A stretch of DNA of 64,000 bases from Escherichia coli (GTDB taxonomy: Bacteria > Pseudomonadota > Gammaproteobacteria > Enterobacterales > Enterobacteriaceae): the NCBI RefSeq assembly GCF_050920415.1, contig NZ_CP169309.1; one strand, 5' to 3'. This document shows, piece by piece, positions 44,617 through 47,881 of the stretch (positions are counted from its first letter, which is position 1; every line of letters starts with the position of its first letter). Under the pieces are notes generated by a model, which saw nothing but the letters and a program-made list of their open reading frames with translations, searched no databases and was not told the origin of the DNA. The position numbers and the translations under genes are program-made.

Positions 44617-45195
44617 ATGGATCTGTTGATTGTTTTAACTTACGTGGCGCTGGCATGGGCGGTCTTTAAAATCTTCCGTATTCCGGTGAATCAGTGGACG
44701 CTGGCGACGGCGGCGCTGGGAGGCGTTTTTCTGGTAAGCGGTTTGATTTTGTTGATGAACTACAACCACCCTTACACTTTTACCGCACAGAAAGCGGTGA
44801 TTGCTATTCCCATCACGCCACAGGTGACGGGGATCGTGACTGAAGTCACTGACAAGAATAATCAGCTTATTCAGAAGGGCGAGGTGCTTTTTAAGCTCGA
44901 CCCGGTACGTTATCAGGCGCGAGTCGACAGACTTCAGGCTGACCTGATGACGGCGACGCATAATATAAAGACGCTGCGCGCGCAGCTCACTGAAGCGCAA
45001 GCCAATACCACCCAGGTTTCAGCGGAGCGTGACCGCTTGTTTAAAAATTATCAACGTTACCTGAAAGGCAGCCAGGCGGCGGTAAATCCGTTCTCAGAAC
45101 GTGATATCGACGATGCGCGGCAGAATTTTCTCGCGCAGGATGCGCTGGTGAAAGGTTCGGTGGCGGAACAGGCGCAAATCCAGAGCCAGCTCGAC
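44617..45195 (+). pseudogene. yibH: yibH 5' fragment (HlyD-family membrane fusion protein), 193 codons, interrupted by IS insertion
   Basis: [23 protein letters not shown]... reading frame runs into IS left end at 45196; the rest of the gene resumes at 47324. Confidence 0.85.
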
Positions 45196-45296
45196 TGTCA
45201 GCGCCAATGATATAAGACAGTAATTCACCATTTGGATTGTCCGCTCCACCCAACATGTTGTTTCCTTAAGGTTCCTACACCACAAAGGGAACACTC

Positions 45297-46343
45297 ATGC
45301 TGAGCAGAGAGGACTTTTACATGATAAAGCAAATGCGCCAGCAAGGTGCGTATATTGTTGATATTGCCACTCAGGTTGGTTGCTCTGAGCGGACTGTCAG
45401 ACGGTACCTGAAATACCCGGAACCTCCGGCCAGAAAAACACGCCACAAAATGGCCAAACTCAAGCCGTTCATGGACTATATCGACATGCGTCTGGCTGAG
45501 AATGTCTGGAACGGCGAGGTCATCCTGGCGGAAATCAAAGCGATGGGTTATACCGGTGGCCGTTCCATGTTGCGTTACTACATCCAGCCCAAACGTAAGA
45601 TGCGGCCATCGAAGAAAACGGTTCGCTTCGAAACTCAGCCCGGTTACCAGCTACAGCATGACTGGGGAGAAGTTGAGGCTGAGGTTGCCGGGCAACGATG
45701 CAGGGTTAACTTCGCGGTTAATACGCTGGGGTTCTCACGTCGCTTCCATGTCTTCGCGGCACCAAAGCAGGATGCTGAACATACCTATGAGTCACTGGTC
45801 CGCGCCTTTCGCTACTTCGGCGGCAGCGTGAAAACCGTGCTGGTCGATAACCAGAAAGCCGCAGTGCTGAAAAATAACAACGGGAAGGTGGTGTTCAACT
45901 CCGGGTTCCTGCTGCTGGCCGATCACTATGGCTTCCTGCCACGGGCCTGCCGTCCACGAAGGGCCAGAACCAAAGGTAAGGTGGAACGGATGGTGAAATA
46001 CCTCAAGGAAAACTTCTTCGTCCGGTACCGCCGGTTCGACAGCTTCGCCCATGTTAATCAGCTACTGGAGCAGTGGATGGCTGACGTTGCCGACAGGCGG
46101 GAACTTCGCCAGTTCAGGCAGACACCGGAACAGCGCTTCACGCAGGAACAGGTGCATCTGCAGGCGCTGCCAGGTACGGACTTCGATACCAGCTACTTCG
46201 ATATCCGTCATGTCTCCTGGGATGGCTATATCGAGGTTGGCGGGAACCGTTACAGCGTGCCGGAAAGCCTGTGTGGCCAGCCGGTATCAATACGGATCTC
46301 GCTGGATGATGAACTGCGATTTACAGTAATGAGCAACAGGTAG
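45297..46343 (+). pseudogene. istA: IS21-family transposase IstA, frameshifted near 3' end (348 aa as read; about 390 aa if the -1 shift around 46313-46343 is repaired, then ending at 46468)
   Basis: HTH N-terminus and integrase-core-like body; alternative frame open from 46313 to TGA at 46466-46468, which overlaps the istB ATG. Confidence 0.8.
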
Positions 46344-46467
46344 CATCGCACCGTCTCTGTTCGGCTGTATACGGCTGGCAGACCGTGCCGGAGCATCACG
46401 CCCCACTCTGGCAGCAGGTCAGTCAGGTGGAACACAGGCCGTTGAGTGCCTATGAGGAGCTGTTGTG

Positions 46468-47262
46468 ATGCATGAACTGGAGACACTGCTGGGTCGTCTT
46501 AAAATGGAACATCTGGGCTACCACGTTGAAAGCCTGCTGGAGCAGGCGGCCAAAAAAGAACTGAACTACCGCGAGTTCCTGTGCATGGCGTTGCAGCAGG
46601 AATGGAACGGGAGGCATCAGCGCAGTATGGAGTCCCGGCTGAAACAGGCCCGCTTCCCGTGGGTCAAAACGCTGGAGCAGTTCGACTTCGGCTTCCAGCC
46701 AGGTATCGATCGTAAGGTCGTCCGTGAGCTGGCCGGGCTGGCGTTCGTGGAGCGTAGCGAGAACGTGATCCTGCTGGGTCCGCCTGGTGTGGGTAAAACG
46801 CACCTGGCAGTCGCTCTCGGGGTAAAAGCGGCGGACGCTGGTCATCGGGTGCTGTTCATGCCACTGGATAAGCTGATCGCCACACTCATGAAGGCAAAAC
46901 AGGAAAACCGGCTGGAAAAACAGCTACAGCAGCTTGGTTATGCCCGGGTACTGATACTGGATGAGATAGGCTATCTGCCGATGACCCGCGAGGAAGCCAG
47001 TCTGTTCTTCCGGTTGCTGAACCGTCGATATGAAAAAGCGAGCATCGTGCTGACGTCAAATAAAGGGTTCGCCGACTGGGGAGAGATGTTCGGCGATAAC
47101 GTGCTGGCAACGGCAATCCTGGATCGACTGCTACACCACTCAACCACACTGAACATCAAAGGAGAAAGCTACCGGTTAAAGGAAAAACGCAAAGCGGGAG
47201 TGCTGGCAAAAAACGCCACGCCAATCAGTGATGATGAAATGGCGGCAAGCGGACAACATTAA
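46468..47262 (+). CDS. istB: IS21-family helper ATPase IstB, 264 aa
   Basis: Walker [12 protein letters not shown] and Walker B ...[11 protein letters not shown]... Confidence 0.85.
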
Positions 47263-47323
47263 TGACCAATAGCGGACATTAAAAATGGCGAAAAACGGCC
47301 AATAATCTTGGCGTTGACACGAC

Positions 47324-47881
47324 AGTATGGTTAACGGTGAGCAGTCGCAGATTGTCAGCTTAAGGGCGCAGCTTACCGAAGCGAAATATAACCTTGAGCA
47401 GACCGTCATTCGCGCGCCGAGCAATGGCTACGTTACTCAGGTACTGATCCGCCCAGGTACATACGCAGCTGCCTTGCCGCTACGTCCGGTGATGGTTTTC
47501 ATCCCCGAGCAAAAACGGCAAATTGTCGCCCAATTTCGGCAGAACTCGCTGTTACGTCTGAAACCCGGCGATGATGCGGAAGTAGTGTTTAACGCGCTAC
47601 CTGGGCAGGTGTTCCACGGCAAACTGACTAGTATTTTACCTGTCGTGCCAGGTGGTTCGTATCAGGCGCAGGGGGTACTGCAATCATTAACCGTCGTACC
47701 CGGCACGGACGGTGTGCTGGGAACCATCGAACTGGACCCTAACGCTGATATCGATGCTTTACCCGACGGCATCTACGCCCAGGTGGCAGTTTACTCCGAC
47801 CATTTCAGCCATGTTTCGGTGATGCGGAAGGTGCTGCTAAGAATGACCAGTTGGATGCATTATCTTTATTTGGATCATTGA
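47324..47881 (+). pseudogene. yibH: yibH 3' fragment (185 codons); joins in-frame with 44617-45195 to give 378 aa once IS and TSD are removed
   Basis: ...[32 protein letters not shown]... typical HlyD/EmrA-like; frame arithmetic confirms. Confidence 0.85.

Follow-up and report, generated by a model that had tools for sequence, protein, structure and literature searches.

An ISEc62 insertion splits yibH in a small Escherichia coli clade and, as sequenced, carries a frameshifted istA

The yibH locus of the Escherichia coli genome considered here raises three linked questions: what split this gene, at which level of the lineage the split arose, and in what state the inserted element now finds itself. 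The answer set out below is that yibH was almost certainly interrupted at codon 193 by transposition of a single copy of ISEc62, a member of the IS21 family, in an ancestor from which a small clade descends, and that the copy in the window (the whole stretch of DNA analysed, 64 kb in length) later lost one G of istA and is probably non-autonomous. As an event, the insertion of ISEc62 into yibH is ordinary, already understood and already known.

The element and the gene that it interrupts are arranged as follows:

44252..44614, + strand: yibI (DUF3302), the intact upstream gene of the yibI–yibH pair; 120-aa ORF, annotated as yibI in the near-identical NZ_CP169399.1
44617..45195, + strand: yibH 5′ fragment, codons 1–193; annotated in NZ_CP169399.1 as a pseudogene missing its C-terminus
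45192..45195, no strand: left copy of the target-site duplication, CGAC, which is present as a single CGAC in intact yibH genes
45196..47319, + strand: ISEc62 (IS21 family) copy, 2124 bp, 98.4–99.9% identical to annotated copies
47320..47323, no strand: right copy of the target-site duplication, CGAC
47320..47881, + strand: yibH 3′ fragment, codons 193–378 and the stop; annotated in NZ_CP169399.1 as ‘HlyD family secretion protein, missing N-terminus’

The original prediction, which placed a 2124-bp element bounded by inverted repeats at 45196–47319 with a direct CGAC repeat on each side (45192–45195 and 47320–47323), agrees with the window sequence, the element being exact to the base: TGTCAGCGCC begins at 45196 and GGCGTTGACA finishes at 47319. 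The terminal inverted repeat matches at 9 of 10 positions in the form first quoted and at 11 of 12 when extended (TGTCAGCGCCAA / TTGGCGTTGACA). In silico excision of 45196–47323 joins 44617–45195 to 47324–47881 in frame, yielding 1137 nt and 378 aa. As had been proposed, this restores an HlyD-family ORF, the sole difference of which from K-12 YibH (NP_418054.1) is A334D, and comparison with intact yibH shows that the reconstructed junction matches without gaps. Over its length the reconstructed gene is 94.6% identical in nucleotides to K-12 b3597, likewise ungapped, and the 90-nt reconstructed empty site is 100% identical to intact, annotated yibH genes; this site stands unbroken in 5128 of the 5426 complete E. 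coli genomes. On its own, a direct repeat of 4 bp at the flanks has a chance of 1 in 256, and its combination with the empty-site match excludes a chance origin.

The same boundaries recur elsewhere. The start and end bases of the element are identical in nine independent ISEc62 copies at other places, and 4-bp direct repeats of unrelated sequence flank eight of these nine; the corresponding repeats of IS21 measure 4 bp in both copies compared. A copy of ISEc62 in strain 510016 is without a 4-bp duplication and lies between IS1 and a lysozyme gene, an arrangement that we interpret as a later rearrangement. No consensus indicating a target-sequence preference is evident among CGAC, AGCA, CCAC, GTAA, TATG, GCTG, CCGG, and CTGA, together with one rearranged copy.

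Assignment to the IS21 family, also part of the original prediction, is supported by the proteins, which pass their NCBIfam cut-offs, and by RefSeq annotation, which names ISEc62. IstA scores 280.9 bits against NF033546, ‘IS21 family transposase’ (cut-off 160), even as a truncated ORF, and IstB scores 297.4 bits against NF038214 (cut-off 200). The name ISEc62 is taken from RefSeq/PGAP, where the copies that share the above identity with the element over its full length are labelled ‘IS21-like element ISEc62 family’. Canonical ISEc62 is 2125 bp long, 1 bp longer than the window copy, and 34 substitutions separate the latter from the common E24377A-type copy. A literature search returned incidental mentions of ISEc62 on plasmids (PMC10654068, PMC7319535) and no study dedicated to it.

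At its two ends the element carries the following repeats and promoter-like sequence:

45196..45207, + strand: left terminal inverted repeat L1, TGTCAGCGCCAA; begins TG, with the same end in nine other copies
45208..45216, + strand: extended −10-like box, TGATATAAG, inside the left end and 15 nt from the tip; read from sequence
45224..45245, + strand: sub-terminal repeat L2, TTCACCATTTGGATTGTCCGCT; inverted counterpart of 47271–47292
47248..47292, − strand: right sub-terminal repeats, comprising R2 at 47271–47292 and a third TGTCCGCT copy at 47248–47255
47308..47319, − strand: right terminal inverted repeat R1, TTGGCGTTGACA on the + strand; ends CA

The TG…CA termini are shared with nine other ISEc62 and two IS21 copies. 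L2 and R2 constitute the longest inverted repeat in the element (22 nt, 82%, at offsets of 28–29 nt from the tips), and TGTCCGCT occurs three times in the 64-kb window, always in the IS ends and always pointing inward; L1/L2 and R1/R2 are the predicted IstA binding sites. The last six bases of the right end, TTGACA (47314–47319), form a perfect outward-facing −35 hexamer. Brought together with TGATATAAG across a 2–3-bp junction, this hexamer would lie at a spacing of 17–18 nt, a predicted promoter that fits the published description of IS21, in which the left TIR carries a −10 box and the right TIR a −35 box (PMC10122671). A consensus scan of the junction with yibH found no promoter-like site that would make a hybrid promoter of the right-tip TTGACA and the yibH flank, and promoter-like sites in the junction region stand at shuffle level (4 vs 3.8); there is thus no sign that the IS drives the 3′ yibH fragment.

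The interrupted gene is a poorly characterised membrane-protein gene, with conserved neighbours (yibI and mtlA). Its 5′ ORF continues into the IS and stops at 45210, giving a 197-aa product that ends ...QLDCQRQ, and the 3′ fragment contains a 184-aa ORF that starts from an internal ATG at 47327. In a profile search, reconstructed YibH matches adaptor families of the HlyD, EmrA, and MdtN types, among which only TIGR01730 (RND_mfp) reaches its curated cut-off (99.9 vs 94.9 bits). Since this lineage has yibH only as a pseudogene, the strain is unusable for studies of YibH/YibI function.

The insertion had been described as recent, a description that holds at the level of the clade and fails at the level of the isolate. 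Among 5426 complete E. coli genomes the yibH::ISEc62 junction is found in one, MFDS1022581, and a wider collection adds at least 24 contigs that carry it, so that the insertion marks a small clade. As a specific clade marker, the junction could serve PCR typing. Two of the sequences that share the insertion, AP025751.1 and AEZI02000021.1, have both istA and istB uninterrupted at the two positions where indels occur in the window and in MFDS1022581; AEZI02000021.1 differs from the window by one mismatch and one gap over 7.6 kb.

The genes of the element are less uniform than its borders:

45297..46343, + strand: istA, frameshifted; 348-aa ORF made of 341 native residues, then FTVMSNR and a stop
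46316..46317, + strand: 1-bp deletion (GG to G), the cause of the istA frameshift; the missing G is at 46317, and the deletion is private to the window
46468..47262, + strand: istB, intact, 264 aa, AAA+ helper ATPase (NF038214, PF01695, Walker motifs)

The word ‘clean’, as first applied to this insertion, therefore suits its junctions and does not suit the element itself, the istA of which bears a private 1-bp deletion and frameshift. IstB is recognised by PF01695 IstB_IS21 (2.4e-88), with Walker A (GPPGVGKT) at residue 104 and Walker B (LILDE) at residue 162, and the ATG of its gene overlaps the TGA of istA (TGATG), as in intact copies. The remainder of the istA frame reaches this TGA, at 46466–46468, in another frame. 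At the deletion site the window reads CTGCGATTT, MFDS1022581 reads CTGCGGATTT, and AP025751.1 and AEZI02000021.1 read CTGCGGATCT; no interruption occurs here in sister copies that occupy the same site. The deletion allele occurs in none of the 284 places that match an 81-nt ISEc62 istA segment in complete genomes, and an exact look-up of the 348-aa truncated IstA in the wider collection gave no record.

What the frameshift removes can be read against intact relatives, which are 390 aa long and carry Pfam rve, HTH_23, and Mu-transpos_C_2. Falling after codon 341, it takes away the C-terminal extension together with the last part of the beta-barrel. In IstA of IS5376 the beta-barrel spans residues 300–355, Tyr343 contacts IstB, and integration requires Gln369, which lies in the C-terminal extension (PMC10122671, PMC11208146); the IstA of ISEc62 aligns with that of IS5376 at Tyr343. 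Autonomous transposition calls for functional IstA and functional IstB, and because its IstA is without the IstB-contacting barrel end and the C-terminal extension, the window copy as sequenced is probably non-autonomous, provided that the base is truly absent and was not lost in assembly. This loss of autonomy concerns the state of the window copy and not its membership in the IS21 family, and whether annotation should call the copy intact or a pseudogene turns on the frameshift.

Were the istA frameshift an artefact of sequencing or assembly, the copy would be an intact, autonomous ISEc62 of 2125 bp, and we consider this a substantial possibility, if on the unlikely side. Over 64 kb the window and MFDS1022581 show only two indels, both inside the multi-copy, 2.1-kb IS, and the probability that both would land there if evenly spread is about 0.001. 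Long-read indels that remain in multi-copy repeats, beyond the reach of short-read polishing, would give such a pattern, and MFDS1022581 has four chromosomal places that match the istA segment. One of the two indels lies in an A run; the other lies in a GG pair, and such a dinucleotide is atypical for long-homopolymer error. No other copy shows the deletion and the 348-aa product has no second source, although frameshift decay of IS copies is itself common, as illustrated by an internal stop in strain A20 and the frameshifted istB of MFDS1022581. If both indels are real, the IS copy that the sister strains inherited has been inactivated twice, independently, by loss of 1 bp: in istA in the window and in istB in MFDS1022581. 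Indels confined to the IS between near-identical assemblies are also a warning about assembly quality in repeats.

A truncated IstA could, on a different reading, be functional, binding the ends of ISEc62 and acting as a dominant-negative inhibitor of other genomic copies. The 348-aa ORF retains the HTH-1, HTH-2, and DDE domains, the lost residues contact IstB and the flipped base in IS5376 (PMC10122671, PMC11208146), and IstA seated on the ends has been proposed to occlude promoter elements (PMC10122671). Such a role is speculation and appears to us quite improbable: the truncated barrel may simply misfold, and an allele private to one assembly gives no sign of selection. We regard as equally doubtful the broader notion that the frameshifts are real and non-neutral, whether through selection to silence ISEc62 or through a truncated IstA that inhibits the remaining copies without engaging IstB.

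It is scarcely credible that the IS is the arm of a composite transposon, or the cause of an adjacent deletion or inversion, mechanistically tied to the T6SS/ISAs1 island: a variable, low-GC island with ISAs1 remnants does lie directly downstream, but removal of the element with one CGAC restores yibH exactly and a matching 4-bp duplication stands on both sides, which excludes an adjacent rearrangement mediated by the IS, and the window has neither a second ISEc62 nor an extra pair of terminal repeats, on which ground a composite element was rejected. The island (47.9–60.4 kb) contains two vgrG modules, and its content differs by strain: K-12 has rhsA at this place, and Z0117EC0005 has nothing. 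The suggested tie of mobile-element activity between the insertion and a ‘toxin island’ finds no support in the analysis; the neighbour is a distinct T6SS vgrG/ISAs1 region of low GC, situated where variation is already known. Within the 64-kb window the element has no self-matches that would reveal a second ISEc62 copy, and the search for stray terminal repeats returned only two unrelated one-mismatch 12-mers, at 27232 and 36846.

The favoured reading remains that ISEc62 transposed once, in the common ancestor of a small E. coli clade, and landed in codon 193 of yibH; IS21 and IS5376 supply the model for the mechanism. By analogy with these elements, the DDE transposase IstA would bind the paired repeats L1/L2 and R1/R2, and the AAA+ ATPase IstB would capture and bend the target DNA. 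The 3′-CA ends would then join target phosphates staggered by 4 bp, and gap repair would leave the CGAC duplication. The insertion divides yibH into two non-functional pieces, with yibI untouched; the window copy, as sequenced, has since lost one G of istA. Because the ends and istB are intact, other genomic ISEc62 copies could probably mobilise the window copy in trans.

Comparison with known systems places the element at three distances. The window copy has termini identical to those of canonical ISEc62, shares with it the istA–istB layout with the TGATG overlap and the 4-bp target duplication, and departs from it in the missing G at 46317 and the resulting istA frameshift. IS21, the prototype (2131 bp), shows about 86% DNA identity to ISEc62 over the full length and about 93% identity in both IstA and IstB. 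Conservation reaches about 97% in the left 80 nt, and the two elements agree at each of the last 11 nt of the right end, terminal TTGACA included, whereas a 7-bp indel and several substitutions separate their right sub-terminal regions. This divergence is large enough for ISEc62 to bear a separate IS name. Both elements make 4-bp duplications and both have IstA starts at Met1 and Met9; the putative −10 and −35 elements of ISEc62, like those reported for IS21, are positioned for a predicted promoter at the joined ends. IS5376 of Geobacillus stearothermophilus (PDB 8b4h, 8q4d, 8q3w, 5bq5) is the structurally characterised member of the family, and it provides the closest solved structures for IstA (aligned over residues 1–388, E = 7e-84) and for IstB (8q3w; residues 14–242, E = 2e-66). 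IS5376 and ISEc62 share the domain order of IstA (HTH-1, HTH-2, DDE, beta-barrel, C-terminal extension), an AAA+ IstB, and two repeats per end. They differ in that Arg345 of IS5376 is Asn in ISEc62, and in that IS5376, like many other IS21-family members, is reported to duplicate 5 bp of its target (PMC10122671, PMC11208146), whereas ISEc62 duplicates 4 bp.

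The insertion in yibH is real, and the original prediction interpreted it correctly as an IS21-family element with a precise 4-bp target duplication; all of its coordinates hold on reading of 44500-48000 and on in-silico excision. As a named insertion sequence (IS) in a named gene with textbook family signatures, yibH::ISEc62 is ordinary and already known. The present analysis adds that the element is ISEc62, a sibling of IS21, that the insertion is distributed at clade level, and that istA carries a private frameshift, to be treated with caution as it may be an assembly artefact.

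Records matching 80% or more of the element's length number 865, and it is 98.4-99.9% identical to copies labelled by RefSeq 'IS21-like element ISEc62 family transposase' and 'IS21-like element helper ATPase IstB'. Its genes and inner repeats are:

from 45297, istA, matching NF033546 'IS21 family transposase' (NCBIfam) at 281 bits against a cut-off of 160
46468-47262, istB, intact, 264 aa, matching NF038214 at 297 bits (cut-off 200) and PF01695 at 2.4e-88
45224-45245 and 47271-47292, second repeat block of each end, 22 nt, 82% identity, 28-29 nt from the tips

IstB carries Walker A (GPPGVGKT) and Walker B (LILDE) motifs, for istA the intact 390-aa relative has HTH, rve, and Mu-transpos_C_2 domains, and in intact copies the istB ATG overlaps the istA TGA by one base (TGATG).

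The inverted repeats and flanking CGAC that had been claimed are present on both sides. CGAC at 45192-45195 precedes TGTCAGCGCC, which starts at 45196, while GGCGTTGACA finishes at 47319, with the second CGAC next to it at 47320-47323; the element between is 2124 bp long, and its terminal inverted repeats pair at 11 of 12 positions (TGTCAGCGCCAA versus the reverse complement TGTCAACGCCAA). Nine more ISEc62 copies at unrelated loci (a phage tape-measure gene, mscS, an IS66 element, a zinc-ribbon gene, and others) all start with TGTCAGCGC and finish with GGCGTTGACA, at the same bases. Four-bp direct repeats of unrelated sequence (AGCA, CCAC, GTAA, TATG, GCTG, CCGG, and CTGA are those given) flank eight of the nine; the remaining copy, between IS1 and a lysozyme gene, has no such repeat and is evidently rearranged. 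Two copies of IS21 proper also show 4-bp duplications. Among the ISEc62 duplications, CGAC included, no target consensus emerges. Positions 45196 and 47319 are genuine transposon ends.

Excising 45196-47323 fuses 44617-45195 to 47324-47881 in an open frame of 1137 nt and 378 codons, the HlyD-family protein originally proposed. Of 5426 complete E. coli genomes, 5128 carry the 90-nt reconstructed junction (one CGAC) without interruption; their empty sites are always annotated 'yibH: HlyD family secretion protein', and the match is 99% or better in 22 genomes. Excision and alignment to intact yibH, suggested as a check, thus recover the junction of these genomes. In Z0117EC0005 and in K-12 (b3597), yibH is collinear with the reconstructed gene, and each of the three is 1137 nt long. 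Relative to K-12 the reconstruction is 94.6% identical in DNA, and its 62 nucleotide differences change a single residue, A334D, which shows that purifying selection acted on this allele up to the time of the insertion. Neither half of yibH carries another lesion. The break in YibH, a protein of 378 residues, falls at residue 193 and separates the two halves of its membrane-fusion fold; yibI (44252-44614) is intact. At the right junction a consensus scan detects nothing like a hybrid promoter, and the site count for the region is at shuffle level. PMC11551758 lists yibH, clustered with rhsA, as a y-ome gene that is uncharacterised, so no phenotype can be predicted from its loss.

Only one complete RefSeq genome has the occupied left junction (160 nt): MFDS1022581 (NZ_CP169399.1), a sister strain that agrees with the window at 99.986% across the full 64 kb, the differences being seven substitutions and two indels. 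In a wider collection, at least 24 contigs (including AP025751.1, AEZI02000021.1, GL872044.1, AEXD01000022.1, and several SRA-run assemblies) encode the 197-aa junction product, YibH'-CQRQ, by exact-sequence look-up, and their flanks are at least 99.96% identical to the window. The insertion, shared by MFDS1022581 and these contigs, is a derived trait that marks a small clade; the event is young, as the word "recent" had implied, yet not private to one isolate. In the draft GL872044.1 (GCA_000190955.1), 725 N lie within yibH::ISEc62 and the IS interior is a scaffold gap, which shows how badly this repeat assembles in short-read drafts.

The insertion had also been called clean, which is true of its junctions but overlooks the istA frameshift. 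Canonical ISEc62 is 2125 bp, and the window copy is missing one G at 46317 (window, CTGCGATTT; MFDS1022581, CTGCGGATTT; AP025751.1 and AEZI02000021.1, CTGCGGATCT), so that the reading frame changes after codon 341 and the product, 348 aa long, ends in FTVMSNR. In IS5376, a structurally characterised family member, the IstA beta-barrel comprises residues 300-355, Tyr343 docks onto IstB and is required for its stimulation, and Gln369 in the C-terminal extension contacts a flipped base and is required for integration (PMC10122671, PMC11208146). The Tyr343 position aligns between the two IstA proteins, and by this analogy a product without the Tyr343 and Gln369 regions probably leaves the window copy unable to move on its own. 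Since both ends and istB are intact and four chromosomal places in MFDS1022581 match ISEc62, the copy could plausibly be mobilised in trans.

A separate 1-bp deletion is present in MFDS1022581, within an A run of istB (A6 to A5, 46547-46552 in window coordinates). These two indels, the only ones separating the strains in 64 kb, both fall inside the 2.1-kb IS, with a chance of about 0.001 under uniform distribution. AP025751.1 and AEZI02000021.1 (the latter with 1 mismatch and 1 gap relative to the window over 7.6 kb) have the same insertion with both sites uninterrupted, and the ancestral insertion was therefore an intact element. Real, independent decay of one inherited copy fits these observations. 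That the istA frameshift is a residual assembly error, beyond polishing in a multi-copy repeat, is a somewhat doubtful but serious possibility, and the clustering of the two indels suits artefact and decay alike. In complete genomes, 284 places match an 81-nt stretch of ISEc62 istA and none has the deletion allele, which is also not on record in the wider collection.

The original prediction also hinted at a link with the neighbouring toxin island, of which the features are:

47882-60357, low-GC island between yibH and yibF
about 47961-48457 and 50300-50572, two ISAs1 transposase remnants
49112-49864, minus strand, muramidase (PF11860) ORF
51290-53779, minus strand, 829-aa ORF whose sole domain match is EF-hand
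53789-55990 and 58012-60357, two vgrG/tssI genes, 83% identical to each other

GC is 0.376 over 47882-51284 versus 0.484 for the window. The position is a known kind of variable spot, holding rhsA in K-12 and nothing in Z0117EC0005, where yibH directly adjoins yibF. Because excision restores yibH exactly and no second ISEc62 copy was found in the 64-kb window, the IS inserted in a simple event of its own, with no mechanistic tie to the island. Within the island, a 543-bp direct repeat (49748-50289 and 52103-52645, 95.9% identity), with an ISAs1 remnant between its copies, is a piece of the 829-aa ORF downstream of vgrG copied into small ORFs beside the muramidase gene; it looks like the displaced or orphan effector 3' ends of Rhs/T6SS cargo loci.

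Elsewhere in the window, the mtlA-mtlD spacer (41505-41789) contains a sequence of roughly 150 bp duplicated almost in tandem; the two copies are 94% identical, the period is about 134 bp, and they may represent REP-type repeats. Between lldP and yibL lies a YadA-like trimeric autotransporter adhesin gene (32560-37536, 1658 aa) with internal repeats of 83-89% identity at about 35167-36207; a DUF3251 gene comes next, at 37580-38263.

For istA, the intact 390-aa relative aligns with IS5376 IstA (PDB 8b4h) over residues 1-388 (E = 7e-84). Every copy of the octamer TGTCCGCT in the 64-kb window, three in all, is within the IS ends and points inward. As judged from sequence, the end repeats follow the L1/L2 and R1/R2 layout, paired repeats at the left and right ends, that IS5376 IstA needs for integration (PMC10122671). 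A perfect -35 hexamer, TTGACA, makes up the right tip, and the left end has TGATATAAG 15 nt from its tip, so that joining two ends across 2-3 bp would create a predicted promoter with a 17-18-nt spacer; a promoter from joined ends has been described for IS21 tandems (PMC10122671). The IstA N-terminus, MLSREDFYM, provides Met1 and Met9, a pair matching the transposase and cointegrase isoforms of IS21 (PMC10122671), and the gene call in AP025751.1 begins at the ninth codon. ISEc62 aligns end to end with IS21 (2131 bp) at about 86% identity, and for both IstA and IstB the figure is about 93%. Conservation is about 97% over the left 80 nt, and at the right end the final 11 nt are the same in both elements, making ISEc62 a close sibling of the family prototype.
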